Source: Torpedo marmorata
Lineage: Eukaryota
Assembly (NCBI GenBank): GCA_977017645.1
Contig: OZ360242.1
Span: 16,368,001-16,432,000 of the forward strand
Direction: 5' to 3'
Length of the DNA: 64,000 nt
The translations under genes and the position numbers were made by a program. Of this stretch, positions 7,615 to 52,473 are shown piece by piece. Position 1 is the first letter of the stretch. Every line of letters starts with the position of its first letter. The notes below the pieces were generated by a model. That model did no database searches. It was not told where the DNA came from and worked only from the letters and a program-made list of their open reading frames with translations.

Positions 7615-7636
7615 CAGATTATATAGCTAATAAAAT

Positions 7637-7879
7637 TGATAGGCATATCAATGATTCCAGAGAGGCGAGAAGTAGTGCAGGAACAGTAGGCTTTTATTAG
7701 CTATAAAAGAGCACGGCAGTTGACCTGCTGGGACCTGCTGATCTATCCCGGAATGAGGGCGGAGTAGTGGCACAAGGGCCTTTATTCGGGGTAGGAAGGG
7801 GAGGAGCAACCGGGACAGACAGCAGGACATGCCCAGACTTATCCTCAGCCCACAATACACAAAACAGTTGTTTACCACA
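7637..7879 (-). repeat. 5' LTR of element A
   Basis: Direct repeat of 3434-3676; gag ATG lies 22 nt downstream. Confidence 0.95.
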
Positions 7880-10726: not shown

Positions 10727-11275
10727 CAGGTGCCTAACCTTTTATCTGAAATTCCGAAAACCGAACATTTTTTCCAGTATATTTTCAGGTGTTTAGCTTA
10801 GTTTGAGCCAGTTAATGTTTGAAGATTTACTGTACGTTTTACTGAAAAATAAAAAGTATGCTAGTAATTTTATGGACTATCTTTATCTCACTTCATTTAC
10901 CACCCCCACTGCCCCCCCCGTCCAGCGCCACTGCGAACACCCCCGTCCAGCACCACCGCGAACACCCCCGTGCAGTGCCGCCGCGAACACTCCCGTCCAG
11001 CGCCGCCGCGAACACCCCCGTCCAGCGCCGCCGCAAACACCCCGTCCAGCGCCGCCGCAACCGCCCCCCACCATTCAGCGTCGCCGCAACCCCCCACCAT
11101 CCAACGCCGCCGTACAGAAACCCTTCTAGTTGGAGTGTGTCTTTGTTTTGCACGAATCTGAAGCAACGCAATTATTTTAAAGTACCGCCGTTAAAATAAT
11201 TCTATAATCCGAAAAAATCCAAATTCCGAAAAGTGTTCCGGTCCCAAGGTTTTCGGATAAAAGGTTAGGCACCTG
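10727..11275. mobile_element. Tc1/mariner (Tigger/pogo-like) MITE nested in the hAT element
   Basis: TIRs CAGGTGCCTAACCTTTTATC and GATAAAAGGTTAGGCACCTG; TA on both sides. Confidence 0.85.
10913..11113. repeat. GC-rich minisatellite, unit about 24-25 bp (CCCCCGTCCAGCGCCGCCGCGAACA), about 8 copies
   Basis: Tandem units visible directly inside the MITE. Confidence 0.85.
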
Positions 11276-12254
11276 TACTAATTACCACAATATTGTAGCT
11301 AAAACACCAGAAAATTTGACAAAAGCAGCGACTACAAAAACACCAGCAGCAATGAAAACAACAGCGCGTGCTTGTAGCACGTGCAGACGAAACCACGTGA
11401 TTCGAAGCGTCATTGTAATTGGGTAATAATGACAGTTCTGACTGGAGCACATTAGAAGGTTCAAAAAGTAAATTAGCATAAAGTTTTAGCCTTGTAGGTA
11501 TATTGATACATGTAAGCTGGGCTTACGAAAAAAAAATTTGTTGTTACAACTAACTACAGGGATATTTTTATAAAAAATAATAAATTTCTGCTGAAACACT
11601 GTACAAAAATTTTATAGACAGTAATTTTGGTGTCACCCCCTGATGGTGTCGCCCGGTGCGGTCTGCACCCCCCGCACCCCCCGAGTGACGCCAGTGATTT
11701 CTCACAGTGCAAATTGAGTTCCATTCCCTTTCTCACAGTGCAATTTCAGTTCCCTCCCCTATCTTTGTCCCCTATTACTATCTCCCCAACATCATTTTCC
11801 AGCGATCTAATGACCACCCTGGCCTCTCTTTTGCTCTTTATATATCTGAAAGAAAAAAAATTCAAATCGTCTTTTATGTTACATGGATGAGAGAGGTATG
11901 GAGGGCTATGGACTGGTTGCAGCTCAGTGGGACTAGGCAAAAAAAAATGGTTCTGCACAGACTAGAAGGGCCGAAGGGGCCTGTTTCTGTGCTGTAATGT
12001 TCTATGGTTCTATGTTACTAGCTAGCTTACCTTCGTAGTTCATCTATTCCCTTTTTATCACTTTTTTAGTTACCTACTGTTGGCTTTTCAAAGCATCCAT
12101 ATCCTCTGGCTTCTCACTAATTTTGCAATATTGTACGCTCTCTCTTCTGCTTTTATGGTGTCTTTGAATTCCCATGTCAGCCACAGTTGCCTCATCTTCC
12201 CTTCACAACACTACTTCATCCTTGAGATGCATTTGTCCTGTGCCTTCTGTGACC

Positions 12255-15200
12255 ACTAAGCCAGTCATTGATAAGTCAGAGAAAGACTCTGATATTTATC
12301 CGGCATGTGCCATAACCAGGGCCATGTCTAAGAAAAATGTCACTGTAGAGAAGGCAGTGGAAAATAACTTGCTGAAAGAAAAAGTAAGTGATAATCAAGA
12401 AAACCTGGAAAAGGTTGAGCAATCTCCTATGTTACACCCATCCACTGACAAGACACCTAAAGGCACAGATTTGTCACTATCCCGACAGGAGTTAATAGCA
12501 AGGCAAAAGGACGATCCTGATCTTGCTGAGGTGAGGGATAAGGTTCTCTCTGAAGAGGAGATTAAAAAGGTGCCAGTAGGTTATTATGAAAAAGATGGGG
12601 TGTTGATGAGAAAGTGGAGACCATGTGATGTTCCTGCCAATGAAGAATGGGCAGTAGTGCAGCAGGTTGTGATCCCTAAAGTATATAGGGATGCAATAAT
12701 AACTTTGGCTCATAGTACACCCTTAGGTGGTCATCTTGGGGTGAAGAAAACTATAAGGAAGATAACGAAACAATTTTATTGGCCCAGTTTGAGAAGGGAG
12801 GTTGTAAGGTTTTGCCGGGCCTGTCACACTTGTCAGGTGGTGGGTAAACCTAATCAGGATTCCCTGGTGGCACCCTTGCAACCTATCCCTGCTTTCAGTG
12901 AGCCTTTCTCGAGAGTAATTGTGGATTGTGTTGGCCCATTGCCCAAAACCAAAGCGGGGAATGAGTATTTGTTAACAATTATGTGTGCAGCCACCAGATT
13001 TCCAGAGGCCATTCCTCTGAGAAACATTAAAGCAAAGTCAATTGTAAAGGCTATGGTAAAGTTTTTCACCTTGGTAGGTTTGCCAAGGGAAATTCAATCA
13101 GATCAGGGCAGTAATTTCATGTCAGGCGTTTTCCAACAAGTGGTTGATGGACTAGGAGTTAAACAGATTGTATCCTCTGCGTTCCATCCAGAAAGTCAAG
13201 GGGCCTTGGAGAGGTTCCATTCGACTTTGAAAAACATGATTAGAACCTATTGTTGTGAAAAGGAAAAGGATTAGGATGAGGGGGTTCATTTGTTGTTATT
13301 TGCAGCGAGGGAGTCTGTCCAAGAATCACTTGGTTTTAGTCCATTTGAGTTAGTTTTCGGACATGAGGTGAGAGATCCTTTAAGATTATTAAAAGAACAG
13401 TGGATTAATCGTGATGTGCATTTAAATCTGTTAGATTATGTTTCCAAATTTAAGGATCGGTTACATAGGGCTTGTGAGATGGCAAAGGAGAATTTAAAGG
13501 CCACTCAACGGAGAATGAAGGTTTGGTATGATCGAAAGGCGAAGATGAGAACTTTTAAACCTGGTGAGAATGTATTAGTTCTGTTTCCCGTCCATTCAAA
13601 TCCTCTTAGGGCTAGATTTTCAGGACCCTATAGAGTTAAGGCAAAAATTAATGAGCTCACCTATGTCATAGAAACACCTAATCGCAGACGAGACACACAG
13701 GTCTGTCATGTGAATATGATTAAGCCATATTTTGAACAGGTGCCACACAAAGAGACTGAACATTTACCAGAGGTACTGGTTATTGACAGGGGTAAGGAGG
13801 AGACAGATAAAACCAGTTTCAGAGAGGGTCATGGGACTGTTACTTCTCGGGGTTATGTAGTAGGACAGGGGAAGTTGGCGCCAGTAGAGGCAAAGGTTGT
13901 GACTATTTCCGAGTTCCCTGTTCCAACTGGTAAAAAAACTCTGAGGAGGTTCCTGGGAATGATTGGCTACTACCGCAAGTTCTGTAAAAACTTTGCTGAT
14001 CTTGCGCTCCCTCTCACAAATTTGCTTAGAAAGAAAGAAAAATTTGTATGGTCAACAAGTTGTCAGGAAGCATTTGTCAAATTGAAAACCATGTTATGCC
14101 ACCAACCTGTGCTTAAGTCACCTAATTTAGAACAGCCGTTTTCTTTAGCAGTGGATGAAGCTGTGGGTGCGGTGCTGTTACAGAAGAAGAACGAAGAGGA
14201 CATTGACCATCCGGTATCCTACTTCTCAAAGAAGTTCAATGATCATCAAAGGAATTATTCAACCATAGAAAAAGAGTTGTTGGCTCTACAACACTTTGAA
14301 GTGTATATCTGTACAGCTCAAAAACCACTCATAGTGTACACTGACCATAACCATAAGAATCGACGGTTGTTGAATTGGAGTCTAATTTTGCAAGAATATA
14401 ATTTGATAATCACACATATAAAAGGGAAAGATAATGTAATTGCTGATTGTCTTTCTAGATGTAAAACTTTATCAATGAAAATAGTTCATATTTTGTATTT
14501 GTGGATGAACATTGTAGATTTTGTTTATATTGTGACACCTCAATTACTTTCCAAAATTTTGTTCTTGCAGACCAAAATTTTCTTTGTGGGTGGGAGGTGT
14601 TATGGACCATGACTGACCATTGGGACTGCGGACGGTCAGCAGGAAGGATGAAGTATTTTGGAGTATACACTGGGGCCAGGTACTGAAAGAGTTAACTTGC
14701 CCAGGACTTGGTGTACCCAGAGAGAGAGAGAGAGCAGAGAGAGACAGACTGTGGAAAAGATACATTGTTGCACTTTTGCAAAAGCAGGTGCAGACCTCTG
14801 CAAAAAGCAGACAGTTGGGAGTTGCAAAGGCTAGAGAACACAGCCAAATCCAGGCTTGTGCATCCCAGAGAAAAGACTGGCAGGATAGCACATGGCCTCC
14901 TGTCTCAGAGAAATTCTGAGGTAAAGCAACTTCTGTGGAGAACAGGCGAGAGATCAGCGAGACTAGCTGTGAGATCCAAGCACACGCCTTAATCAGTGGT
15001 ATACTGATCTGAACTCGCAATCCTTATGAAAACACAAGAAGGGAACGTCATCAGAGAAGAAAAACAAGTATTTGTAAGCATAAACAGTCATTGTCTCTCT
15101 CCAACGTTCATTTAGAAGTACTTCTACCAGACACAGAGCTGAATTTGAAACCTGAACTTAGAGAGTGAATTTTGTGGACTGTATTATTCTTTTTTTTGAC

Positions 15201-15459
15201 TGACTTGTTTTTATGACTGACCTGGGGTTTTTGGGGAAAGTTTTTCCATTTTTACATAAGGGTTGGGCACAGACTGTAATGGTCTGGGCTTTACACACAC
15301 ACACACACACACCTTTTAGATAAGAATAGTGTTTATAGACGTTTATAGTGGGGTTAATTGTTGTGAAATTATATGTTTAATTGTCTTTAATAAATATAAA
15401 TTTCAATTTTACCCCTTTTGCATTGCGTCTTCTGTCGTTGCTGGTTTGATTTTGTAACA
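12255..15459 (+). mobile_element. Gmr1-like Ty3/Gypsy LTR retrotransposon, 5'-truncated and RT-deleted (integrase upstream of RT/RNase H) with 3' LTR
   Basis: Integrase (AHSTPLGGHLG..CRACHTC, VDCVGP, SDQG, ERFH, GPY) precedes the RT tail (GYVVGQG, LRRFLGMIGYYR) and RNase H. PPT GGGTGGGAGG, then an 862-bp LTR TGTTA...TAACA at 14598-15459. Confidence 0.85.
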
Positions 15460-15696
15460 AACTGATTTATAAACGGCCGATTAAGAGACCCACGAGGCTT
15501 ATCGACTCGTCTCATTGTAAAGCTAATTCTAGCCACGAATAGATCAACAAGCACTAGATAAAACAATGAGCTGTATGGCAGGGATCCTCTGTGATTGTGC
15601 AGCTCTTCGCGTGCTTTGTGAAGCAAATTTATTTGTACATATTTGTAAATATAATTGTCGTCAATTTCGTCTATTTTATAAAATAAAATGTTTCTT

Positions 15697-18450
15697 AAAA
15701 TTAATTGAGAAAACAAAACAAAGATATTATGAATTAGGGGAAAGAGCCCATAAGGTTTTGGCATGGCAATTGAAAAAAGAACAAGTTTCTAAAACTAAAA
15801 ATGCTATAAGGAAGAAAAATACTGGAGAAATAACTTATAAACCTCAAGAGATAAATGAATGAATCTTTTAAAGATTATTATCAGAATTTATATAAATCGC
15901 AGATTGATCAAGACGATTCTAAAATTAATAGATTCCTATCCAAAATCACACTACCTAAATTGAACATTCAGAGTAGAGATTCTTTAGATTTGCCTTTTAC
16001 AATGAGGGAAGTTAGTGAAGTTTTTTCTTCGCTGAAGAGTGGTAAATCTCCGGGTGATGACGGGTTTCCATCAGAATTTTATAAAGAATTTAAAGATTTA
16101 TTAATACCTCCATATATGGAAGTACTAGGTTCTCTCTGAAGAGGAGATTAAAAAGGTGCCAGTGGGTTATTATGAAAAAGATGGGGTGTTGATGAGAAAG
16201 TGGAGACCATGTGATGTTCCTGCCAATGAAGAATGGGCAGTAGTGCAGCAGGTTGCGATCCCTAAAGTATATAGGGATGCAATAATAACTTTGGCTTATA
16301 GTACACCCTTAGGTGGTCACCTTGGGGGTGAAGAAAACTATAAGGAAGATAATTAAACAATTTTGTTGGCCCAGTTTAAGAAGGGAGGTTGTAAATTTAA
16401 AGATTTATTGATACCTCCATATATCCTAAGATAGTGGGTATTAAAGTTGGTATGGAAGAACATAAGATTAGTTTGTTTGCAGATGATGTATTGATATATA
16501 TGACAAAATCTATTACATCACTTCAACAACTATCTAACATATTAAGAGAGTATGGTGAAATATCTGGATATAAAATTAATTCTGATAAAAGTGAAATAAT
16601 GGCTTTATCTCAAGGTGATTATACTAGATGTAAAGAAATTACACAATTTAAATGGGCTAAAGAAGGAATTAAATATTTGGGAGTTAAGGTTGATACAAAA
16701 TTGGAAAATTTATATAAATTAAATTATCTACCATTATTTGTGAAAATAAAGAAAGATTTAGAGAATTGGAAAGATTTACCCATAACTTTAATGGGAAGAG
16801 TAAATTGTATTAAAATGAATATTTTTCCAAGAATTCAGTATCTTTTTCAATCAATTCCTTTTGGAATTCCTCAAAAAATTTTTAAAGATTTAAATTTTAT
16901 TATTAGGAAATTTTTATGGAAGGGAAAGTTAGCAAGAGTAAGTATGGAAAAATTAACTTGGAATTATGAGATGGGTGGATTGTAACTTCCTAATTTTCAA
17001 AATTATTATAAAGCATCTCAATTAAAATTTGTTAATGAATTTTTTGATTCAACTAAATCTTCTGCTTGGATTAAAATAGAATTAAATAATATAGGAGAAG
17101 ATTTTAAAGAAGAAATTATTTATAAATGGGATTCTAAATTAATATCAATAAAAAAGAAAAATTCACCAATTATTAAACATTTGTTGGAAATATGGGGTAA
17201 GACGGATAAAGAAATAGGTGGAAAAGGATTGATTTCTTCAAATACGCCATTATATCAAAATGGACTTATACCATTTACTGTTAATAATCAGTTACTTAAA
17301 ATTTGGTTTCAAAAAGGTATTAAGAAGATTAGTGATTGTTTTGAAGCTGGAAAATTTATTACGTTTCAAAGAATGAAAGATAAATTTAATATATTAGATA
17401 ATACATGTTTAGCTTATTATCAAGTTAAAGCTTTTTTGACTGAGAAATTAGGTTATGCTTTGATTTTACCGAGACAAAATGAGTTAGAATTATTAGTTAC
17501 TAATGGAGATGTCAATAAATTCATTTCTCAAATGTATAAATTGTTTCAGAGAAAAATGCCTAAAATAGGATTGCATAAATCAAGATTAAAATGGGAATTA
17601 GATTTAAATGTAAATATAGATGAAAATCATTGGAAAGATTTATGTAAGTTAAGTATGACGAAGATTATCAATGTTAGATATAGACTAGTACAATATAATT
17701 TTTTTCATCAATTATACTTAACACCTAAAAAACTAAAGAAATTTAATCCGACATTATCAGGCTTATGTTTTATATGTAATAGAGAGGAAGGTTATTTTGT
17801 TCATTCTACATGGTTTTGTCCAAAAATTCAAGATTTTTGGCTGAAAGTTAAATTTTTTTTAGATAAAGTATTTAAGATTACATTTCCAATGGATCCTATG
17901 TTATTTTTATTTGGAGATAATAAAAAATTTAGTATTAAGAAGAAATTAAATATGTATCAAGTAGAATTTTTGCGAATTGCTTTAGCTGTTTCAAAAAATG
18001 CATTGCTATTACTTAGAAATCTGATTTAGATTTAGGATTAGAAAGATGGCATGCAGAACTTCGTTCGTGTATACCACTTGAAAAAATTACTTATAATTTA
18101 CGTAATAAATATCATTTTTTTTTGAAAATTTGGAGCCCATATATGAGAGCCGTGGGTTTAAGGATTTGAAGATCTCTGGTTATCGGATCTGCTGGCATAT
18201 TTGACCTCCATAATTTAGAAGGTATTCCCCTTATTCTATTCTTTTCTTTCTTTCTTTTTTCTATTTTACTTTAAATTTTTATTTTTATATTATTTTTTTT
18301 TTTATTAGATTAGTGGGGATGGGGGGGTTGGGGAGGGGAGGGATGGTGGAGGGGTGAAAATGTATCACATGTATTTTGATAATTTTATATCTTATCTCGT
18401 GTATTTTGTGATTTAAAATTTTAAATAAAATAAAAAAAAAATAAAATAAA
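15697..18450 (+). mobile_element. 5'-truncated L1-clade LINE (ORF2 pseudogene) with an internal foreign insert
   Basis: YYELGERAHKVLAWQL, KSPGDDGF, ISLFADD, IKYLGV and C-terminal Cys motif; A-rich tail; TSD up to 19 bp ATAAAATAAAATGTTTCTT (15678-15696, 18451-18469). Confidence 0.88.
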
Positions 18451-20744: not shown

Positions 20745-20850
20745 GGGCAGCATGGTTGGCATAGCGGTTAGTGCCAGCGATCGGGACCTGGGTTCGAATC
20801 CTGCGCTGTCTGTAAGGAGTTGGACTTTCTCCCCGTCTAAATTAAATTAA
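20745..20850 (+). mobile_element. Truncated tRNA-derived V-SINE
   Basis: B-box GGTTCGAATCC and start of the V-domain, as in the other copies. Confidence 0.6.
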
Positions 20851-21000: not shown

Positions 21001-24000
21001 TGTGGCAGCTCACCCACGTGGTAGGCGAACTGGCTCCAGCAGTCGCGGGCAAGTCCGCAGCCAGCGGCATTCACGGGGACTCTCAGTGCGGGGCAAAGCC
21101 GCGGCCCAGAAGCCGACATCACTTCCGCCCCGCCGGGCGCTAAGGTCGCTGGGTCAGGCGCGGGGTTTTAAGCGCGCGATTTTGAATTAGTAAATCAGTT
21201 GCTCTGAAGCTCTGCTCGACTCAGCGTGTTTCTTTCGCTCACAGTGGCACAGCAGCCACATTGGTGACCCCGACGGTCCAACGGCATTTGGACCCGACAC
21301 GAACGACTCCATCGACATGGACAACACGGACGACTCGATTCTTCAAAACGCAGTTTCGCTTAAACTGCCAACTTTCTGGACCACTCAGCCCCTCGTCTGG
21401 TTTCAACAAGCAGAGGCCCAGTTCCAGGTCAGGAACGTTGTCTCCGATGAGACCAGATACTACTACGTGGTGGCTGCGCTTGACCAGAAAACGGCGGGCC
21501 GAGTAATGGACTTTCTGCAACAGCCCCTGGAGGCCAACAGGTATGCAGCACTCAAGGCCCTGTTGGTCGGCATATTCAGCCTCTCACGCCGTGAACGGGC
21601 CGCGCGGTTGCTGCATATGGACGGCCTAGGCGACCGCGCACCGTCAGCCCTGATGAGTGATATGCTGGCACTAGCAGACTACCATAAGCCGTGTCTACTT
21701 TTCGAACAGATCTTTTTGGAGCAGATGCTGGAGGACATCCGCATCCTACCAGCAAATGAGGATTTCTCCGACCCTCGAAAGGTGGCCGCTCACGCGGATG
21801 TTCTTTGTCGTGCCAAATGAGAAGGCAGAACCAGCATCGTGATTAGTGCTGCGTCACGACCGAAGTCCCAGCCACACCGTACACCAGCAGCAAAACCTGC
21901 AACGCCCACGCCAAGAGACGACACCAGTTCCGAGTCTTGGTGTTTTTACCATCAAAGGTGGGGATCCGGGGCCTGCTGATGCCGACCGCCATGCTTGTTC
22001 CAGGGAAACGAAAGGGCCAGCCGTCGCTGATGGCTATGGCGGCTGGCCACCATGATAGCCTCCTGTACATCTGGGACAGACACTCCGGGCACAGATTCCT
22101 GGTGGACACGGGAGCGGAAATCAGTGTCTTTCCCCCCTCGAGCCACGATACCAGAACCAGAGGGGCCAGACCGGAGCTCACGGCGGCCAACGGCAGCACC
22201 ATCCGCACCTACGGCACGCAGACTACCCCCTTTCAATTCGGTTCCAGCCGATTCACATGGACGTTTACGCTGGCCACGGTGTCACAGCCATTGCTGGGTG
22301 CAGACTTCCTCCGCGCGCACTGTTTGCTCGTGGATCTGAAGGGACGACGGCTGGTCGACGCAAAGACATTCCAAACTTTCCCCCTCAGTGAGGCCAAATT
22401 GCCGGCTCCGCACCTAGATTCCGTCACTTGTTCGGACAACGTGTTTGCCAGGGTGTTGTCGGAGTTTCCATCCGTCATCACGCCGCAGTTTTCCACAGCA
22501 GCCCCCAACCACGGCGTGATGCACCACATTCCCACACAGGGACACTCCCTGCACGCCCGGACCCGCAGGCTACCACCAGACAAGCTCCGACTCACGAGGG
22601 AGGAGTTTAACAAGATAGAGGAGATGGGGATCGTGCAGCGTTCTGACAGCCCATGGGCCTCCCCGCTCCATATGGTGCCCAAGTCCGCGGGAGGATGGAG
22701 GCCGTGTGGTGACTACAGGAGGCTGAATGATGCAACCATCTCCGATAGATATCCAGTCCCGCACATCCAAGACTTCACGGCCAACCTGCACGGGGCATGC
22801 ATCTTTTAAAAAATTGAAGTCCCAGTCCACCCAGATGATATTCCAAAGACGGCCATCATTACCCCATTCGGCCTGTTCAAATTCCTCAGGGTGCCGTTCG
22901 GCTTAAAAAACCCAGCACAGACCTTCCAGCGCCTCATGGATGCAGTAGGGAGGAACCTGGACTTTCTGTGCATCTACCTAGATGACATCCTGGTAGCCAG
23001 CCACTCCCGCCAGAAACATCTGGCACATCTGCGCCTGCTCTGCTGCCACCTCAGTGACTATGGCCTGTCGATCAACATCGCCAAGTGCCAGTTCGGCCAA
23101 CCCACCATCGACTTCTTGGGACACCAGATCGACCGTCACGGAGCCGTCCCCCTGCCGACGAAAGTGGAAGCCATTCGCCAGGCCCAACACAGTCAAAGGC
23201 GTCGGTTATGTATTTCTATCTTTGCTACATAAAAGACACTGTTTGACCTGCTGAGTTCTCCAGCTTTTGTGTTTTTTACAGTCAAAGGCCTGCAGGAATT
23301 TGTCAGGATGGTTAACTTTTACCACCGGTTCATTCCCTCAGCGGCCCGGATCACGTGCCCCCTTTTCGGCTTGATGTCCGGCAAAGCCAAAGAAGTTGCC
23401 TGGACGGAAGAGGCGATGGAAGCTTTCGACCAGGCCAAGAACGCTCTAGCCAATGCCACGCTCCTGGTCCACCCCTGAGTAGACGTCCCCACGGTCCTCA
23501 CTGTGGACGCCTCCGAAGCGGCAGTCGGCGGCGTGCTTGAACAGTTAATTGAAGGCCAATGGAAACCGCTTGCTTTCTTCAGCCGGTACCTGCGACCCCC
23601 AGAGATCAAGTACAGCGCGTTCGACAGAGAGCTGCTGGCCCTGTACCTGGCCATTCGGCACTTCATGTACTTCCTGGAAGGGATGAAGTTCAGGATCTTC
23701 ACACAGTAGGGAGGAAGAGACGTTTACCATAGACCGTCTCAAACCGGCACACCTGGACATTGAACGACCAGTCGTGGTGCCACCCGCTAGGAAACGAGGC
23801 CAACCACGTAAAACGGACTGTGTACAGGTTACGGTTTCTGCGCCTCCTATCGCCGGTTCTGGGGGGGGGGGGTGTCATGTGGCGGCTCACCCACGCGTCA
23901 GGCGAACTGGCTCCAGCAGTCGCGGGCAAGTCTGCAGCCAGCGGCATTTACGGGGACTCTCAGTGCGAGGCAAAGCCACGGCCCGGAAGCCAACGTCACT

Positions 24001-24137
24001 TCCGCCCCGCCGGGCGCTAAGGTCGCTGGGATAGGCGCGGGGTTTTAAACGCGCGATTTTGAATTAGTATATCAGTTGCTCTGAAGCTCTGCTCAACTCA
24101 GCGTGTTTCTTTTGTTCACAGTGGCACAGCAGCCACA
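21001..24137 (+). mobile_element. CsRn1-like Ty3/Gypsy LTR retrotransposon, degenerate (integrase largely deleted)
   Basis: 260-bp LTRs at 21001-21260 and 23878-24137; TSD CGCT; PBS TGGTGACCCCGACG (tRNA-Trp complement); poly-G PPT; gag AVSLKLPTFW, protease FLVDTGAE, RT YLDD, RNase H DASEAAVG with stops and deletions. Confidence 0.92.
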
Positions 24138-24865: not shown

Positions 24866-25130
24866 GGTGGCACAATTGGCTTAGCAGTTAGCGCAACGCC
24901 TTTACAGCGCCAGCGATCGGGACCGGGGTTCGAATCCCGCGCTGTCTGTAAGGAGTTTGTACGTTCTCCCTGTGTCTGCGTGGGTTTTCCCCGGGAGCTC
25001 CGGTTTCCTCCCACCGTTCGAAACGTACCGGGGGTTGTAGGTTAATTGGGTGTAAATTGGGCGGCACGGACTTGTGGGCCGAAATAGCCTGTAACCGTGC
25101 TGTATGTCTAAATTTTTTTTTTAATTAAAA
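24866..25130 (+). mobile_element. tRNA-derived V-SINE (HE1-like)
   Basis: A/B boxes and V-domain GTTCTCCC..GTCTGCGTGGGTTTTCCCCGGG..CTCCGGTTTCCTCCCA; T/A-rich tail. Confidence 0.8.
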
Positions 25131-26780: not shown

Positions 26781-27197
26781 TGAATTCTATCACTGCCTCC
26801 CAAGGGTTCTTTTATCTTAAGCTCCCTTATCAAATCTGGTTCATTAAACAACACCCAAAGCAGAATTGCCTTTTCCCTGATCGGCTCTTCCACAAGCTGC
26901 TCTAAAAAGCTATCCCGAAGGCATTCTATAAATTCCTCCATTTGGGATCCAGCACCAACCTAATTTTCCCAATCAACCTGCATACTGAAATCCCCATGAC
27001 TATCATAACATTGCCTATTTGCATACCTTTTCTATCTTCCACTGTAATTTGTACGTCACCTCCTGTCTACTTTTTGGAGGCCTGTTTATTACTCCCATCA
27101 AGATTCAAAATTCTTTTATTGTCATGTAATAGTACAGAACATGAAATATTACATGAAATTGCCTTCTACCTGCCATAAGGCAGACAAAGAGTCGGCA

Positions 27198-30100
27198 TGA
27201 TGTACCTATCAATGACAGATGCGAGTCTAGAAGTGCAGGAATTAATAGGCTTTTAATACCAGAATCAAGGCCAGGGCTAAGCTACACCTTGACCTGGTGA
27301 TCCCTGCTGGATTGTCCCGGAACTGAGGGAGGAGTCAATGGCTCAAGGCCTTTATTCCAGGGAAAGGGGGGAGGAGTCACCGGGACAGACAGACAGGTCA
27401 TGGTCATACTTGCCTCAGGCCACAATACCTATATACATACTAAAAGTGGTTTACCACATTCACCCCTTCTTTTAGAACAAGTCCGACGGGGGGGGGGGGG
27501 GTGAAGTGGATACCATAATATTAAAGAAAAGAACAAATAAACATAGATTATTTACATAGTCTCTACAAGTCGAGTCTAACCGGCGGCCGGATTCGCCGCC
27601 GTGACCTGCGTAGTACCAGCGGTGATGGTAGTGGTTGTGGAATGAGGGTACGTGATGCCTGCGGAGATGGTTGTGGTTGTGGAACGGGAGTAGGTATAGT
27701 AGGGTGGATCTGGGTTTGGTTCGCCTCCTGCCTGGCTTGTGGCCTTTCCAGCTGCGGCTGGGGCGTTGTACCCGCCGTGCTGGGAGGCGGATGGGCCGGA
27801 GGGGGCAGCTGCGACCCGGCGTTCCCGCTGTCGGGGACCTCCTCTGACGCTCCTGCAGGCGCCAGGTCCCGTATGGACACCGTGTCTTCCCGTCCGTCAG
27901 GGAAAACCACGAATGCGTACTGCGGGTTCGCATGGATCAGCTGCACCCTCTCGACCAAGGGCTCGTACTTGCTACTCCGAAGATGTTTGCGGAGTAGCAC
28001 CGGCCCTGGGGACGTCAGCCAGGCAGGGAGGGTGGTCCCAGTGGTCGATTTTCTGGGGAAGGAAAAGAGACGTTCGTGAGGGGTAGCGTTAGTGGCAGTA
28101 CACAAAAGGGATCGTATGGAGTGGAGGGCGTCCGGGAGAACCTCCTGCCAGCGAGCCACTGGCCACCCTTTTGCTTTCAGGGCCAGTAGTGTAGCTGTCC
28201 ATACCGTGGCGTTCTCCCTCTCCACCTGTCCGTTCCCCCGTGGGTTGTACCCCGTGGTCCTACTGGTGGCGATGCCTCGGGTCTGCAAATGCTGTCGCAG
28301 CTCCTCGCTCATGAACGCGGATCCCCGGTCGCTATGGACATAGCTGGGGAACCCGAACAAGGTGAATACCTGGTGGAGGGCCTTGATAGCCGACGCCGCC
28401 GAGGTATCTGGGCAGGGGATGGCAAAGGGGAACCGCGAGTACTCATCGATGATGTTGAGGAAGTACACATTGCGGTTCGTGGAGGGAAGGGGGCCCTTGA
28501 AGTCTGTACTGAGACTTTCGAACGGGCGGGTGGCCTTGACCAGCTGTGCTTTGTCGGGGCGGTAGTACTGCGGTTTGCATTCCGCACAGACTCGGCAGCT
28601 GCTGGTCATGGTTCTGACCTCATCCAGGGAGAAAGGCAGGTTCCGTGCTTTAATGAAGTGGAACAGCCTGGTGACTCCTGGGTGGCAGAGGTCGTTGTGT
28701 AGGGAGTATAACCGGTCGATCTGCGCGCTGGCGCACGATCCCCGGGATAGAGCGTCAGGGGGCTCGTTGAGCTTCCCGGGCCGGTACATGATGTCGTAAT
28801 TATAGGTGGAGAGTTCTATTCTCCACCTCATGATTTTGTCATTCTTGATTTTACCCCGCTGCTGGCTGTTAAACATGAATGCGACGGAGCGCTGGTCCGT
28901 CAGCAGGGTAAAATGTTTTCCGGCGAGATAGTGCCTCCAATGCCGAACAGCCTCGACAATGGCCTGGGCCTCTTTCTCTACCGCGGAGTGCCGAATTTCG
29001 GGGCCTTGAAGGGTGCGGGAGAAAAACGCTACCGGCCTTCCCGCCTGGTTGAGGGTAGCAGCCAGTGCGAAGTCCGAGGTGTCACTCTCCACCTGAAAAG
29101 GTTCCGACTCGTCCACCGCGTGCATCGCTGCTCGGGCGATGTCCCCTTTTATGAGGTCGAAAGCCTCACGTGCCTCCGCTGCAAGGGGAAACTTGGTGGA
29201 CTTGACGAGGGGTCGGGCTTTGTCCGCGTAGTTTGGGACCCACTGCGCATAATACGAAAAAAACCCGAGGCATCGTTTAAGTGCTTTGGGGGTAACGGGG
29301 ATCGGAAGTTCCAACAGGGGGCGCATGCGGTCGGGGTCGGGTCCAATCACCCCGTTTTCCACGACGCACCCCAGGATAGCGAGTCGGGTAGTCCCGAACA
29401 CGCATTTCTCCTTGTTATAAGTGAGGTTCAGCGTCTCGGCTGCCTGCAGGAACTTCCGAAGGTTCCTATCGTGATCCTGGCGATCATGACCACAAATGGT
29501 GATGTCGTCCAGGTACGGGAAGGTGGCAGTGAGCTTGAACTGGTCAATGATCCTGTCCATCTCCCGTTGGAACACGGATACCCCATTTGTTACCCCGAAG
29601 GGGACGCGCAGAAAATGAAATAATCTGCCGTCCGCCTCGAAAGCGGTGTACACTCGGTCCTCCCGGCGAATCGGGAGCTGATGGTAAGCCGACTTTAGGT
29701 CGATAGTGGAGAATACTTTATACTGCGCAATCTGGTTGACCATATCCGCGATTCTTGGCAGCGGATAGACGTCCAGTTGCGTGAACCGGTTGATGGTCTG
29801 GCTATAGTCCACCACCATCCGGCTCTTAGCCCCGTTCTTCACCACGACTACCTGTGCTCTCCAGGGGCTGTTACTGGGTGCAATGATCCCTTCCTCCAGT
29901 AAACGCTGCACCTCCGCCTTAATGAATGCCCTGTCCCCTGCACTGTATCGCCTACTTTTAGTTGCAATGGGCTTACAGTCAGGGGTCAGGTTGGCGAAGA
30001 GTGGCGGGGGTTGGGTCTTCAGCGTGGAGAGACCACAGGTAGTCTGGGGCGTATTATTCACGTATTGGGGGTTTGCCACTACGATCGGGGGGTGGGGCCC

Positions 30101-31955
30101 ATCATAGTGCATGGTGACGCTACGCAGGTGGCTTTGGAAGTCCAATCCCAGCAATACAGGAGCACACAAACGGGGCATGACCATCAATGAAAACTCCCGA
30201 TATTCCGTGCCCTGTACCACTATATTCGCCACACAACCCCCCCGGATGTCTGTTGTGTGCGTTCCAGATGCCATGGCCACCCTCTGGCTTACCGGTACAA
30301 TGGTGAGGCCACAGCGCTGGGCAGTGTCTGGGTGTATAAAACTTTCGGTACTGCTTGTGTTGAACAGGCAGGTGGTCTTATGCCCCTCAACTAGTATGTC
30401 CATCATTGATCTGGACAGTTGATGGGGCGCGTTCTGGTCCAGCGTCACGGATGCCAGGGTCGGGACGAAGTCTTGGTCCGACGAGTCGTCTTGATCCGAT
30501 GGCAGCTCCCGTAGCGCACACGTGTCGCTACAAGATGGCGGCGCCGGAAGTGCTGGCACAGCCGCGGCGAGGTTGTAAAATGGCCGCGCCGGAAATGTAG
30601 AAACCGGAAGTGCAGACCAAGATGGCCGCCTCCATTCCTCGCACGAGGTCTCCGCCAGAAGTGACGTCAGGTAAGATGGCCGCTCCCCCACTTCGCATGC
30701 GGCGCTGCTCGAAACCGGAAGTGCTGCGCGCCGAGATGGCCGCCTCCATTCCTCGCACGAGGTCTCCGCCGGAAGTGACGTCAGGTAAGATGGCCGCTCC
30801 CTTACTTCGCACGCGGCGCTGCTCGGACCCGTACGCGACTTGGAGCGGCAGGCCTTAGCATAGTGGCCTTTCTTGCCACAGCTAGAACAAGTCGCGTCTC
30901 GGGCCGGGCAGCGCTTGCGCGGGTGTTTGTCGAGCCCGCAGAAGTAGCACTTCTCGGGCTCCCGGGTGACAGCGGCAGCGGTTAACTCACGGGTGGCGGC
31001 GGGCTCTCGGGCAGCGGCGGCAACGGCCAACTCACGGATAGCATCGGCGGCGGTGATCGGGTCCCGGTAGACGGCAGCGGCCGTCGCGTTGCTTGCAGGG
31101 CTGGCGGTTGGGGCGATCCAAGAGGCAGGCTGCGTCTGCATAGCGTCAGCGTTCTTGAGCGCCGATTCCAGCGTGAGGATATTCCGGACGGTAGATTTCA
31201 GGGTCAGGTCGGCGTGTTCCAGCAATCGCTGGCGAATGTAACCCGACCTGATCCCCATAATGATAGTGTCCCTTGCCAGTATTTCGGCGTGTTGCTCGGC
31301 CGTCAGGGCTCGACAATCGCACGCCCGCACCAGGAGCATCACGTCCTGGATATATTCAGAGATCGACTCTCCGGGTCGCTGGTACCGTTGCGATAACCGG
31401 TGCCTCGCGAAAACCTCGTTCACCGGCGTCAGGTACAGCCTTCGGAGGGCTTCCAAGGCATCCTCATAGGTATCACAGTCTCTGACAGCGCCATACACTC
31501 GTTTGCTTACTCTGGACATGAGGATGTCGAGTCTATGCTCGTTGGTAGCCGCTCCGGTCGACCTCAGGAAGGCTATGAAGCAGCGCAGCCAGAGTTCAAA
31601 GTCACTTGCAGCGTCTTGGGCCAGGGGGTCGATGTCCAGCTTATCCGGCCTCAGAAAATTCTCCATCGGATTTTCTTGGAACTGGTATTAAAATTGATGT
31701 ACCTATCAATGACAGACGCGAGTCTAGAAGTGCAGGAATTAATAGGCTTTTAATACCAGAATCAAGGCCAGGGCTAAGCTACACCTTGACCTGGTGATCC
31801 CTGCTGGATTGTCCCGGAACTGAGGGAGGAGTCAATGGCTCAAGGCCTTTATTCCAGGGAAAGGGGGGAGGAGTCACCGGGACAGACAGACAGGTCATGG
31901 TCATACTTGCCTCAGGCCACAATACCTATATACATACTAAAAGTGGTTTACCACA
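27198..31955 (-). mobile_element. Full-length Ty3/Gypsy LTR retrotransposon (Mag-like), element B, related to element A
   Basis: 261-bp LTRs at 27198-27458 and 31695-31955 (1 mismatch seen); TSD CGGCA at 27193-27197 and 31956-31960; PPT; single ORF. Confidence 0.96.
27563..31666 (-). CDS. Gag-Pol polyprotein, 1367 aa, uninterrupted; protease active site reads LFNTSS
   Basis: Same domain order and motifs as 3787-7614; YLDD intact; 38-aa tandem duplication in the gag-protease linker. Confidence 0.93.
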   Translation of the reverse strand: MENFLRPDKLDIDPLAQDAASDFELWLRCFIAFLRSTGAATNEHRLDILMSRVSKRVYGAVRDCDTYEDALEALRRLYLTPVNEVFARHRLSQRYQRPGESISEYIQDVMLLVRACDCRALTAEQHAEILARDTIIMGIRSGYIRQRLLEHADLTLKSTVRNILTLESALKNADAMQTQPASWIAPTASPASNATAAAVYRDPITAADAIRELAVAAAAREPAATRELTAAAVTREPEKCYFCGLDKHPRKRCPARDATCSSCGKKGHYAKACRSKSRTGPSSAACEVRERPSYLTSLPAETSCEEWRRPSRRAALPVSSSAACEVGERPSYLTSLLAETSCEEWRRPSWSALPVSTFPARPFYNLAAAVPALPAPPSCSDTCALRELPSDQDDSSDQDFVPTLASVTLDQNAPHQLSRSMMDILVEGHKTTCLFNTSSTESFIHPDTAQRCGLTIVPVSQRVAMASGTHTTDIRGGCVANIVVQGTEYREFSLMVMPRLCAPVLLGLDFQSHLRSVTMHYDGPHPPIVVANPQYVNNTPQTTCGLSTLKTQPPPLFANLTPDCKPIATKSRRYSAGDRAFIKAEVQRLLEEGIIAPSNSPWRAQVVVVKNGAKSRMVVDYSQTINRFTQLDVYPLPRIADMVNQIAQYKVFSTIDLKSAYHQLPIRREDRVYTAFEADGRLFHFLRVPFGVTNGVSVFQREMDRIIDQFKLTATFPYLDDITICGHDRQDHDRNLRKFLQAAETLNLTYNKEKCVFGTTRLAILGCVVENGVIGPDPDRMRPLLELPIPVTPKALKRCLGFFSYYAQWVPNYADKARPLVKSTKFPLAAEAREAFDLIKGDIARAAMHAVDESEPFQVESDTSDFALAATLNQAGRPVAFFSRTLQGPEIRHSAVEKEAQAIVEAVRHWRHYLAGKHFTLLTDQRSVAFMFNSQQRGKIKNDKIMRWRIELSTYNYDIMYRPGKLNEPPDALSRGSCASAQIDRLYSLHNDLCHPGVTRLFHFIKARNLPFSLDEVRTMTSSCRVCAECKPQYYRPDKAQLVKATRPFESLSTDFKGPLPSTNRNVYFLNIIDEYSRFPFAIPCPDTSAASAIKALHQVFTLFGFPSYVHSDRGSAFMSEELRQHLQTRGIATSRTTGYNPRGNGQVERENATVWTATLLALKAKGWPVARWQEVLPDALHSIRSLLCTATNATPHERLFSFPRKSTTGTTLPAWLTSPGPVLLRKHLRSSKYEPLVERVQLIHANPQYAFVVFPDGREDTVSIRDLAPAGASEEVPDSGNAGSQLPPPAHPPPSTAGTTPQPQLERPQARQEANQTQIHPTIPTPVPQPQPSPQASRTLIPQPLPSPLVLRRSRRRIRPPVRLDL

Positions 31956-32989
31956 CGGCATTAGTGTTCTTCGGAGCAGCGCTGTGTCTCCGCTCTTCTG
32001 GGTCCACACCAGTGCCAGAGCTGCTGTTACAGCAGCTCTGGCAACCCCTTACAATAAGAGAGAAAGAGAAACAAAAGAGAGTACCTTCAGAGTCAGTGAG
32101 CGTCCGTGGATTCGCCTCCAGCGCTCCCGCAGCCTCTGCAGTCACACAGATTCCTGTTCAATCCATCGGCAACCCAAGCTCAGATGCAAACCTCAAACAC
32201 GATCAGGAAGCCTTCAGCACTCGAGGCAGTTCAGGAGCCCTTCTTGCCCTCAGCACCCTCTCGAATCCCGGCTCCGATACCTGGTTCCAATGAGCCAGTC
32301 TCCAGCAGTCCACAGCCCATGCGGGTCCCCCAACAGCAAGTTGCCCACAGCCTGTGTGGCTCCTTGAGTCGCTGAGTCCCTCGCTGGTTCGCCACCATGG
32401 TCACCGTCTTGTAGAGTTGTCTCCTCTGCTTCTCCTTCTCAACGGGGGGGGGAGGGAATGTTCTCCACATTTCTGGTGTCTGCTTCTTCCTGGAATCTGC
32501 AACCCCTTGTGGCCACTGCCCGACTACAGGCATTGCCATCTTGGATACAGACTTGTGGTTGCAGGATTTTAATTTAAAAACACCTTCGGCTCCTCTAACA
32601 GGCCGTTTAATGCTAGTACGGAGCTGCTGGCATTAGGACCGGACGGTTGAACCCTTTGAAGCAGCGCTGTCTCCGCTCTCCCTGGTCCACACCAGCGGCA
32701 GCGCTGCCGTTACAGCAGCTCTGGTAGAGCCGCCATCTTTTTTTTTTACTCTTGCAATTTCTTAACTCGACCCACAGGGATTCTACATCTGATCCCATGT
32801 CTCCCCTTTACAAGGATTTGATTCCATTTTGATACCAACAGAGCCACCCCACTCCCAATGCCTACCTGCCTGTCCTTTTGATACACCATGTATCCTTGGA
32901 TGTTAAGTTCCCAGTGATTTTCTTTCAGCCACGACTCAGTGATGCCTGCAATGTCAGACCTGTCAAATTCCACTTGCGCTACAAGATTT

Positions 32990-33232
32990 AAATTTAGACA
33001 TACAGCATGGTAACAGGCCCCTTCGGCCCACAAGCCTGTGCCACCCAATTACTCCCAATTGACCTACACTCCCGGTAGGTTTTGAAGGGTGGGAGGAAAC
33101 TGGAGCAGCAGGAGGAAACCCACGCAGACACGGGGAGATCGTACAAACCCCGTACGGACAGCGCTGGATTCAAACCCGGGTTGCTGGCGCTGTAATAGCA
33201 TCACACTAACCGCTACACTAACCATGCTGCCC
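32990..33232 (-). mobile_element. V-SINE
   Basis: Reverse complement of the SINE at 24866-25130. Confidence 0.75.
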
Positions 33233-33343: not shown

Positions 33344-34482
33344 GCCCCATCATCCCCTCAAAACTGATCAGCAAACTCCAAGACCTGGGCCTCCATACCT
33401 CATTGTGTAATTTGATCCTGGATTTCCTCACCTCCAGACCCCAATCAGTGAGGATTGGTAAGAACATCTCCTCCACAATCTCCATCAATACTGGACCACC
33501 ACAAGGTTGCGTACTTAACCACCTGCTCTACCAGCTTTACACCACTGTGTGGCTCGGAACAGCACCATTTACAAATTTGCTGACGATACCACGGTAGTGG
33601 GTTGTATAAGGAGGGCTGATGAGTCAGCATACCGTTTGAAAACTTGGCTGAATGGTGTACTAACAACAACCTCACAATGTCACCAAAACGAAGGAACTGA
33701 TTTTGAACTTTAGGAAGGGAAAACCAGAGGTGTACGATCCAATGATCATTGGGGGATCGATCAGAGATGGAGAGGGTGAGCAAATTTAAATTCCTGGGAG
33801 TCACTATCTGAGGTCCCTTCCTGGACCCAAACACAAATGTCATCGTGAAGAAAGCACGTCAGCGCCTCTACTTCCTCAGGAGTTTGCGGAGGTTTGGTAT
33901 GACCTCAAAAACCTTGGAAAAATCTCAAGATGTGTAGTGGAAAGTGTGGTGACCGGGTGCATCATGGCCTGGCATGGGGGCACCAATACCTCTGAGTAGA
34001 AAGCTCTGCAAATAGTGGACGTAGCCCAGTACATCACAGGAAAAACTCTCCCCACCATCGAGAAAATCTACATGGAACACAGCCGCTAGAGAGCAGCAGC
34101 AATCATCAAGGATCCACACCACTCAGGACATGCACTGTTCTCGCTGCTGCCATCAGGATAGAGGTATAGGTGCCACAAGACTCGTACCTCCAGGATCAGG
34201 AGCAGTTGCTACCCCTCCACCATCAGACTCCTAAACAACAGACTCAGAGACTCATTTAAGGACTCTTCCTTTGCACATTATTTATAACTGAATATTTATT
34301 TTTTCTTCTGTATTTTAGTTTGTTTTCATTTCTTTCTTTGTTTACATTTCTCTCTTTTGTATATGTATCTTTTCTTGAGTACAGTTTTTTGCTCTACCGA
34401 TAAGTAGAAATTCTGCCTGGCCCACAGGAAGAAGAATCTTCGGGTTGTATGCGATGTCATGTATGTAATCTGACAATAAATT
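33344..34482 (+). mobile_element. Rex1/Babar-type LINE 3' fragment
   Basis: [29 protein letters not shown] and KKARQRLYFLR; AATAAA at the 3' end. Confidence 0.75.
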
Positions 34483-34484
34483 TG

Positions 34485-34728
34485 GGCGGCACGGTTAGCA
34501 CAACGCTGTTACAGCGCCAGTGATCGGGACCTGGGTTCGAATCCCGCGCTGTCTGTAAGGAGTTTGTACGTTCTCCCTGTGTCTGTGTGGGTTTTCCCTG
34601 GGGGCTCGAGTTTCCTCCCACCGTTCGAAACCTACTGGGGGTTGTAGGTTAATTGGGTGTAATTGGGCGGCACGGGCTCGTTGGTGAAATGGCCTGTTAC
34701 CGTGCTGTATGTCTAAATTTAAAAATTT
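34485..34728 (+). mobile_element. V-SINE
   Basis: Matches the other SINE copies. Confidence 0.78.
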
Positions 34729-42396: not shown

Positions 42397-42650
42397 CGGC
42401 GGCACGGTTAGCGTAGTGGTTAGCGTGACACTAACTAGCGTTACAGTGCCAGCGACCTAGGTTCGAATCCAGAGCTGGCTGTATGGAGTTAATACGTTCT
42501 CCCCGTGTCTGCGTGGGTTTTCCCCGGGTGCTCTGGTTTCCTCCTATCCTCCAAAGCATAAGGAGTTGAAGGTTAATTGGGTGTAATTGGGCTGCATGGG
42601 TTTAAATAGCCAGAATCAGCTTCTACCGTGTTGTAAATAAATTTAAATTG
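42397..42650 (+). mobile_element. V-SINE in ZNF598 intron 2
   Basis: A/B boxes and V-domain. Confidence 0.75.
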
Positions 42651-43099: not shown

Positions 43100-45165
43100 T
43101 ATTGAAGACCACAGCACCAGTGGTGAGGACGGCGAAAATATGGTCGAAAGAGGCAGAGGAGCGTCTGCAGGACTGCTTTGAATCGGTGGACTGGAACATA
43201 TTCAAGAACTCATCCATAGACCTGAATGAATATGCAACAGGTGTCACCGACTTCATCAAGACCTGCGTGGATGAGTGTGTGCCCACGCGCAAATACCGGG
43301 TGATCCCCAACCAGAAGCCCTGGATGAATCAGAGCATTCGCAACCTGCTGAAGGCGAGAACAAAGGCGTTTAAGGCCGGGAATCGGGATCTTTACAAGAA
43401 GTCCAGGCACGACCTGCGGAAGGCCATCTCTGAAGCAAAGTGGCAATTCTGGAGGAAGCTAGAGACAGATACATGGCAAGGAGTGCAGGCCATTACAGCC
43501 TACAAAGCGAGGGCGAACACTATAGACGGCTGTGATGCTTCACTACCCGATGAGCTGAACACCTTCTATGCCCACTTTGAGAAGAAGAACCAAACAGTGC
43601 CTACCAGAATCCCTGAAAGCTGAGGACCCTGTGATACCTGTCTCTGAGGGCGACATCAGAACATCATTCAAGAGGGTGAACCCTCGCAAGGCGTCAGGCC
43701 CTGACGGCGTACCTGGCAGGGGACTGAAAATCTGCGCCAACCAACTAGCCGGAGTGTTCACGGACATTTTCAACCTCTCATTGCGGCAGTCAGAGGTTCC
43801 CACATGGTTCAAAAGGGCATCAATCATCCCGGTACCCAAGAAGAGTAGTGTGAGCTGCCTCAACGACTACTGCCCAGTAGCACTAACTTCTACTGTGATG
43901 AAATGTTTTGAGAGGCTGGTCATGGCCAGAATTAACACATACCTAAGCAAAGATCTGGACCCACAACAATTCGCCTATCGTCACAATCGCTCCACAGCAG
44001 ATGCAATATGACTGGCTCTCCACTCAGCTCTGGATCACCTCGAAAACAGCAATTCATACATATGGCTGCTCTTCATCGACTACAGCTCGGCCTTCAATAC
44101 CATTATTCCCTCAGTGCTGGTCCAGAAGCTACAAACTCTAGGCCTCTGTACCCCTCTCTGCAACTGGATCCTTGACTTTCTCATCGGAAGACCACAGTCA
44201 GTACCAATTGGAAACAACGTCTCCTCCTCACTGATTATCATCACAGGCGCACCCCAAGGATGCGTGCTTAGCCCACTGCTCTGCTCGTTATACACCCATG
44301 ACTGTGTGGCCAGGCACAATTCCAATGCCATCTGCAAGTTTGCAGATGACACCACAGTTGTCGGCAGAATCACAAACGGCAATGAGGAAGCGTACAGGAG
44401 GGAGATAGATCAGTTTGTTGAATGGTGTAACGACAACAACCTTGTGCTCAATGTCAGCAAAACCAAGGAAATGATTGTGGACTTCAGGAGTAAGTCAGGG
44501 GAGCACGACCCAGTCCTCATCGAGGGCTCAGTAGTGGAGAGGGTCAAGAACTTCAAATTCCTGGGTGTCAACATCTTCAAGGATCTGTCTTGGAGCCTCC
44601 ACGTTGATGCAATCACAAAGAAGGCTCGCCAGCTGCTATACTTTGTGAGGTGTCTGAGGAGATTCGGTATATCACCGAAGACTGTCGTAAACTTCTACAG
44701 GTGTACCGTGGAGAGCATTCTGGCTGGTTGCATTACTGCCTGGTATGGAGATGCCAACTCTCAGGACAAGAATAAACTCCAGAGGGTTAACTTGGTCTGT
44801 GACATCACAGGCACCAGACTTCACTCCATCGAGGGCATCTACATGAGGCGATGTCTTAAAAAAGTAGCCTCTGTCCTCAAAGACCCCACCACCCAGGCCG
44901 TGCCCTCTTCATTCTGCTAGCATTGGGAAAAAGGCACAGGAGCCTAAAGACGAGCACTCAACGGCACAAGGATAGCTTCTTTCCCGCTGCCATCAGATTC
45001 CTGAATAATCAATGAACCAAAGACACTGCCTTACTTTTCGTGCACTATTATTTATATATATTTTTTATAGTTATGTCGTAAAATGGTTATAATATGAATG
45101 CACTATGATGCTGCAGCAAAACACCGAATTTCATGACTTGTTCATGACAATAAATTCTGATTCAC
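43100..45165 (+). mobile_element. Rex1/Babar-type LINE, 5'-truncated
   Basis: [52 protein letters not shown] and FKFLG; AATAAA plus TTCTGA tail. Confidence 0.85.
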
Positions 45166-49400: not shown

Positions 49401-51355
49401 AGAGAAAGGGGAATCTAATTTCGTCTGATCGTCTTGATCCAATCTCGGCAAATCAATCTTGGACAAAAATTCATCTATTTTAGTTAAATCTTTAGGTGAC
49501 TGATTTATACAGCTCAGTATAGAATTGCTTGAATGTATCGTTTATCTCTTTTGGGTTGTGTGTTATCTTGTCTGATCCCAACTGAATCGCATTAATTGTC
49601 CTCGATGTCACTTCCGCCTTCAATTGCCAAGACAAGACCTCTCACCTAATTCATAATATTTTTGCCTGGACCTCAAAATGGTTTTCTCCATTCGATATGT
49701 TTGTAGAGTGTTGTACTTAAGCTTCTTATTAACCAGAATTTGATATTTTTCCTTTGAGACAGATTGTTGATATTCCTTTTCCAACTCTAGAATTTCTCGT
49801 TCTAATTCATTTACATCTGCCAGATGTTTTTTCTTTACATTTTTAGTGTTCGAAATTATTTGTCCCCTCAAATAAGCCTTTAAAGTATCCCATATTAAAA
49901 AACTGTTATTAGTGGAGGGGCAATTTGTTTCACAAAACAAATTTATCTGACCCCTTATAAAGTCACAAAAATCTGTCCTTTTCAACAGCGTGGAATTAAG
50001 GCGCCATTTGTATACGTTAGCCTGTTTTTCTGGCATAACAATAGATAGAATCAAAGGTGCATGATCTGATAATAGTCTGGCTAGATATTCCGGTTCGATC
50101 ACTCTGCCTTCCAGCTGCGCCGACATTAAAAAAATAGTCAATTCTAGTATAGGAATCATGGGGTTCAGAGTAAAAGGAGTAATCTCTGGCTTGTGGGTGT
50201 AACCATCTCCATGCATCTATTAAATTTAGATCTTTCATAAAGGCCAGCCTTGGAATTGAAAGAGGACGCAAACACCTGTCACACCCATTCCCTCTTTAAT
50301 TTGTTATGTTCTTTATTTGTGAGGTGAGTTTCCTGCAAAAAGACTATATCCACCTGCATTTTTTTTAAGGTGTGCCAAAACTCTTTTCCTTTTTATGGGT
50401 CCATTTAATCCATTAACATTAAAACTAACAAATTTTATAGTCTTATTCATTATAGTGTTCATACATTACTATGTTATTTTCATAGCCCCTTAGTATATTT
50501 CTTTCCCAGTGTACATTCTCCCTTATAAGGAAACACATGTATTTCCCCTGCACTGACAGTGACGTCATCAGGAAACCCCAAAAGCCTGCGAAAAAAAATT
50601 TGCAAGGCAAAAAGAAATTCCCTCCCCTTTTTTCCAGTGCCATTTTTCAAAACAACCCTTCTCCTGGTGCCATCAGCCCCCTTAATTTGAAGTACACTGT
50701 GCCCATCCTACCATAACTTCCCAGCCCTTCCCGGGCTCTCCTTATATTTTTACAACATTTTCTTATAATAAAATACACCCCCGCAATTCAATATACAATA
50801 ATCCAACCCCTCCACCTTCTTTTACACCACATGGTCCGCCCCATCTCTTTTACTCAACGTCTATTTATATCCTCCGCGATTCTTTCAGTCCTTGTGCCGT
50901 CTCCTTTCCCGTGTCGAGGAAAATCTACTAGTCACAGAATTAACCCATGCAGAGACGTTCAGGGTAGAGCTTCAAGAGACTTTAATCATGACATTGTCAC
51001 GGAGAGCTTGCCCAGTCCGCACTGAGTCAATGCTCTGCTTTCTGCTTAATCTTGTCTGTTTGTATACAGTGTAGTAAACAACTTTTTACAATGAAGCAGT
51101 CATGGGCTACACAAGGTTTCAATAATTCCATCGATTAATCATTTAGAACTTCATTCTATCTTCTAAACACATAGTTTCTGTCTCTTGATGATAACACCCA
51201 GCTTGCAGTAAAGTTGATAAGGAAAAAGGAGTTACTGTCTCATGTCCTGTTACATCCTTCAAGACCTTGAAGGCTTTCCGGCCCCTATGAGTATGCTTAT
51301 TAACCCATTGAGGTCGGAGTAACATTTTTCCTTCTACAAATCCCTCCTTGTGGAT

Positions 51356-52435: not shown

Positions 52436-52473
52436 GTCAAGCGTTTTACAAAGTCAATCAGAAGGCTACAAAG

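Follow-up and report, generated by a model that had tools for sequence, protein, structure and literature searches.

In the 64,000 nucleotides of Torpedo marmorata DNA analysed here (contig OZ360242.1, positions 16,368,001 to 16,432,000 of the forward strand; hereafter the window), a young, intact Ty3/Gypsy element, termed element B, carries a perfect 12-bp duplex between its 5' LTR and its primer-binding-site position. As judged from the sequence, the clade of element B, a widespread non-chromoviral Gypsy lineage, probably primes reverse transcription in a Tf1-like manner with 10-12 nt of its own RNA, and the helix so formed probably conceals the 5' poly(A) signal as well. This reading builds on features that were observed directly, namely the duplex, its fixed register, covariation specific to each family, the absence of a TGG tRNA site, and a separate position in the reverse transcriptase tree.

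Element B and its LTR-leader duplex

Element B occupies 27198-31955 on the minus strand, on which all its features are read. It was assigned to Ty3/Gypsy by its PR-RT-RNaseH-IN order, TG...CA LTRs, polypurine tract, and target-site duplication. The LTRs are 261 nt each (5' LTR, 31695..31955; 3' LTR, 27198..27458) and differ by 1 mismatch; the polypurine tract, read from the sequence, adjoins the 3' LTR at 27459..27473. A single ORF of 1367 aa, counted from its ATG, encodes Gag-PR-RT-RNaseH-IN (27563..31666), and the target-site duplication measures 5 bp (31956..31960, second copy 27193-27197). The 35-nt LTR-leader junction has 670 exact copies in the 6.2 Gb genome. Within gag of element B and of a second element in the window, element A, we observed in-frame variable repeats of 50-60 nt (30498-31000 and 6618-7032, respectively), which make up much of the size excess of A and B over their relatives of 1200 aa.

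As the first-pass annotation had claimed, the LTR arm at 31748..31759, a candidate self-primer, is the exact reverse complement of the primer-binding-site position at 31682..31693. The latter lacks TGG and is separated from the LTR end by a single spacer base (31694). The 3' part of the arm is an ATTAAA hexamer on the element strand (31754-31749), the G of the tenth pair is 31757, and the arm 3' end faces the LTR edge, a polarity that suits priming. Element A, likewise on the minus strand, has a duplex of 14 bp (7622..7705) between an arm at about 7692-7705 and a primer site at about 7622-7635. The distances from arm to LTR end, 53 nt in B and 55 nt in A, agree with the earlier description, and so does the full pairing in both elements despite changes in 4 of the 12 paired columns. 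In 1000 dinucleotide shuffles of the LTR, the longest stem measured 9 bp (mean 3.8), short of the 12 bp of element B. In the 3' LTR, 27251-27262 repeats the arm with its hexamer, and a downstream partner is absent there.

Beyond a 3x3 loop, four further pairs of element B (31675-31678 with 31763-31766) were found where they had been described; they are not retained across families, in which pairing fades past column 16. The 6-bp junction hairpin (31710-31693) had been described as retained. It is indeed present in B, and is common mainly to the three close families of the Torpedo marmorata genome rather than to the clade as a whole. In B it competes with a predicted inner helix (31701..31747) of 10 bp, in which 31747-31738 pairs with 31710-31701 and which stacks on the arm 3' end; folding favours the inner helix.

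The duplex across related families

DNA of relatives was available from 80 metagenome loci, 7 MAG contigs, and two more Torpedo marmorata families. We compared a hand-picked set of 15 families, each represented by one well-preserved copy, with LTR ends uncertain in three (L033, L034, L084). The check that had been proposed was whether LTR/leader complementarity in related Gypsy families outlasts the turnover of its letters, and this was borne out: a perfect duplex of 12-19 bp was found in 14/15 families, and 0/1000 shuffles matched it for those 14. In the remaining family, represented by an older copy, the longest unbroken run is 7 bp, with pairing at 14 of 16 columns. The duplex begins exactly one base past the LTR CA in all 15 families. 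Leaders pair with their own LTR over a mean of 14.5 bp, versus a mean of 5.4 bp and a maximum of 10 with foreign LTRs.

A blind scan upstream of gag covered 87 loci, 69 of them testable, many being copies of the same families and so not independent. It returned a stem of at least 10 bp in 47/69 testable loci, of which 42 were in the CA+1 register, against per-locus shuffle maxima of 7-13; most of the misses appear to be decayed copies. The G at pair 10 was present in 40 of the 42 in-register loci (L068 and L232 lack it), and in these loci the start codon lies 14-49 nt past the beginning of the primer site. All five testable held-out loci also had a stem of at least 10 bp.

A normal tRNA primer site or a loss of pairing in related families had been named as the observation that would count against the structure; a TGG site is absent in all 15 families. 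When the leaders of families A-D were compared with 27 distinct tRNA genes, representing 9 anticodon types only, the best match was 5-6 nt. Two control elements of the window, 50912-59102 and 21001-24137, have TGG sites and self-pairing of only 5 bp. The former (minus strand) is retrovirus-like, with a frameshifted pol, matches to protease, RT, two RNase H domains, integrase and a zinc knuckle, and a 38-40 nt duplication within its 5' LTR; the latter (plus strand) is a short Gypsy element with a DUF7041 Gag and LTRs 93% identical. Elsewhere in the window we noted a fragment at 12168-16327 (plus strand) in which integrase precedes RNase H, as in Gmr1-type elements, and about 270 nt are duplicated internally; a GC-rich tandem repeat with a 25-nt unit (10892-11043); LINE-type RT fragments with RVT_1 and ALKBH8_N matches (33348-34231, 44012-45001, 60989-61837); and dispersed short repeats with a tRNA-like head, probably a SINE (20770-20821, 24887-25060, 33068-33195, 34494-34667, 42439-42560). 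Other Gypsy elements also lie beside or around copies of the clade (L051:782-5785, L058:10504-15301, L059:5094-12696), two with integrase before RT and one with a TGG primer site.

Column pattern and folding

Across the 15 families, A:U occupies pairs 1-3 and G:C occupies pair 10 without exception, and pair 11 has A in 10 of them. Pair types swap at columns 4-9, 11, and 12. The arm 3' end reads AATAAA or ATTAAA in 10/15 families and a near variant in the other five, and is directly followed by [AG]C[CT], which can pair with a downstream GG. When folded from the presumed start, the central duplex had a probability of at least 0.77 in 13/15 families; inner and U5 helices vary among families, and the inner helix is significant by itself in 3/15 only. 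By eye, the 45 nt that precede the arm show no conserved TATA box, and families A, B, and C have an AATAAA-like or TATA-like word about 90 nt upstream; the transcription start may thus lie elsewhere. An Rfam search gave a single miRNA match at chance level (E 0.28).

Compensatory changes and primer-site variants

Close relatives showed compensatory changes. L213, about 93% identical to element B, has an arm change in both LTRs together with a compensating primer-site base. L051, 98.6% identical to L047, has a different compensatory pair, again with the arm change in both LTRs; of its roughly 11 private sites in 1435 relative to its siblings, two make up this pair, for which a post hoc calculation gives a chance of about 0.3%. 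Primer-site columns 13-15 tolerate change (B versus L213; the L052 family), consistent with a primer about 10-13 nt long. Within family B, 0/14 primer-site variants had a compensating arm change, a count that is uninformative at such depth, and in family C the count was 0/8.

Single variants of family B in columns 5-16 fell on column 12 in 6/16 cases, with a corrected p of about 0.015 that is not significant if descent is shared. These column-12 variants (L199-L208) are all transversions and occur on mixed subfamily backgrounds. A variant hot spot at the far primer edge was considered and set aside, as family C showed no repeat of it. In L227-L229, L214, and L215 the primer site departs from its own arm by a base matching the arm of a sister family, L229 having three such changes; these mismatches could reflect either priming in trans or an ancestral state.

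The first-pass annotation had attributed the pairing to selection on RNA structure rather than to chance. Function over chance is supported by the family-specific pairing, the register fixed in 15 families, and the compensatory changes in near-identical relatives. Covariation need not, in contrast, reflect two independent mutations fixed by selection, since replication would copy a self-primer into its binding site.

Relatives and placement of the reverse transcriptase

Among the matches listed, named homologues of element B come from cartilaginous fish, a sea anemone, nematodes, an isopod, a damselfly, and a sea cucumber, the closest being from rays and sharks. These named-host homologues are known here as proteins, and the duplex data come from metagenome, MAG, and Torpedo marmorata DNA. 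The clade has short LTRs, a 5-bp target duplication, and a Gag with a double cysteine knuckle, and in most relatives the single ORF spans about 1200 aa. Contigs filed in bacterial MAGs (L231-L237) also carry the retrotransposon of the clade, likely as host contamination. Viral contigs held no relatives of the clade, and the ESM Atlas gave generic Gag clusters only.

It had been proposed to place the RT relative to the Tf1/sushi chromovirus group, and the placement falls outside. In a 19-row tree of RT-RNaseH, a long branch with 100/100 support unites the clade and separates it from four proxy chromoviruses (two algal with a chromodomain, one fungal with DUF4939, and one plant; Tf1 and sushi themselves are not among the rows). 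Grouping the clade with these proxies was rejected (AU p=0.008, for 19 rows and with long branches in play). The 19 rows leave out four long or odd rows of a 45-row quick tree and further rows. Chromodomain matches (PF00385 or PF24626) were absent from A, B, three relatives, and the 120 homologues listed. A search for chromovirus references in the Torpedo marmorata genome found two chromodomain loci without RT and no reference, which is not proof of absence. The RT of Ty3 scored 189 bits against B, 214 against a Mag-like protein, and 248 against a Gmr1-type protein. The tree row nearest to the clade is P0012, which its motifs suggest to be Mag-like, and Cigr-1, of similar size, is presumably a lead for naming the clade.

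Mechanism and alternative explanations

The TG...CA ends of an LTR element are rebuilt only if reverse transcription starts at the LTR edge. Since an edge start is required, and the arm is the only conserved partner of the site with its 3' end facing that edge, self-priming of the Tf1 type is favoured; the site pairs with the element's own terminal repeat rather than with a host tRNA, so priming by a short RNA of its own is likely. Transcription would begin at or near the G or AG lying 10-11 nt before the arm 3' end, and the 5' piece of the RNA would fold back onto the primer site. RT/RNase H may then cleave past the A run. Extension from the new 3' OH would take in the spacer base, then 35-65 nt of U5 and R, and the resulting strong-stop DNA would transfer to the 3' R, whose end would lie just past the hexamer of the 3' LTR. 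As a side benefit, the arm helix would conceal the 5' poly(A) signal. There is no need to invoke a splice-built primer, because the partner of the site is a contiguous stretch of the LTR and AG is missing in 5/15 families.

The earlier description had offered non-tRNA priming or poly(A) control as alternatives. Masking of a poly(A) signal by a hairpin is known from retroviruses, which counts for the explanation that the helix merely masks the signal of the 5' LTR and that something else primes, as do the hexamer or its near variant at the arm end and the unpartnered copy in the 3' LTR. We consider this explanation unlikely, because masking needs neither the fixed one-base offset nor the invariant G:C at pair 10, and leaves priming unexplained when there is no TGG site beside the LTR. 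Priming accounts for more than poly(A) control does alone, namely the register of one base and the lack of a TGG site, and both may act together. The arm could also prime from within a longer 5' end, with transcription starting further upstream and a cut at the 3' side of the arm only. Perfect pairing that often reaches 14-19 bp and the TATA-like word upstream in A, B, and C speak for this arrangement, but pairing past column 13 drifts within families, and the AG/G at columns 11-10 after a T-rich run resembles a putative initiator; we consider a longer 5' end quite improbable.

A host small RNA or tRNA fragment might instead prime, with the LTR complement acting as a packaging, dimerisation, or translation structure. 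Half-tRNA primers are reported in some copia lineages (PMC6317226), and our tRNA comparison spanned just 9 anticodon types. Nevertheless, the letters of the site track each family's own LTR, even among four families of one host, and the best tRNA match is short, which makes a host primer very improbable. Returning to self-priming, we tentatively suggest, at somewhat less than even confidence, that it may have evolved independently of Tf1/sushi in a large Gypsy clade spanning animals from cnidarians and nematodes to cartilaginous fish, with one transcript-start RNA of 10-12 nt serving as initiator, poly(A) signal, mask, and primer, and with primer copying keeping the LTR and the site in step.

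Comparison with known systems

Tf1 is described as self-priming with its first 11 bases (PMC7175516). In Tf1/Tf2 of Schizosaccharomyces pombe, Tj1, Tosmo, and Tf1/sushi elements, the primer site after the 5' LTR complements the same LTR over about 11 nt, with no tRNA site (PMC10085805, PMC7175516, PMC4600332). The clade of element B resembles them in that its primer site complements its own 5' LTR and not a tRNA 3' end. It differs in that its candidate primer covers the poly(A) hexamer, with a fixed TAAA end and the pair-10 G, and in having no Tf2-type SH3 match. The pretzel structure of Tf1, in which three duplexes surround the primer site (PMC10085805, PMC7175516), is not clearly formed in the clade.

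Self-priming has also been proposed, from complementarity of primer site and LTR, for the plant lineages Tcn1 (gypsy) and TAR (copia) (PMC6317226), TAR placing the trait outside chromoviruses. These are plant elements of other lineages, whereas the named relatives of our clade are animals. The Mag lineage, Cigr-1, and MolGy (PMC6238403) share its short LTRs, single ORF, 5-bp target duplication, and double cysteine knuckle Gag; the words 'PBS' and 'primer' do not occur in the main text of that source. Within the literature found, self-priming is described for Tf1/sushi, Tcn1, and copia TAR and for no member of the element B clade, which may nonetheless have been annotated before.

Among Gypsy elements, this literature ties self-priming to the Tf1/sushi chromoviruses. 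If our reading is true, a second abundant animal clade would mean either repeated origins of self-priming or an earlier origin than has been assumed. Self-priming elements would evade tRNA fragments that target primer sites, and would be overlooked by PBS-based annotation. From the constant register, the invariant tenth pair, and the 670 near-identical copies, precise predictions follow for where transcription starts and where the RNA is cut. Element B likely works in a Tf1-like manner but, by its missing chromodomain and separate RT branch, falls outside Tf1/sushi in the tests run.
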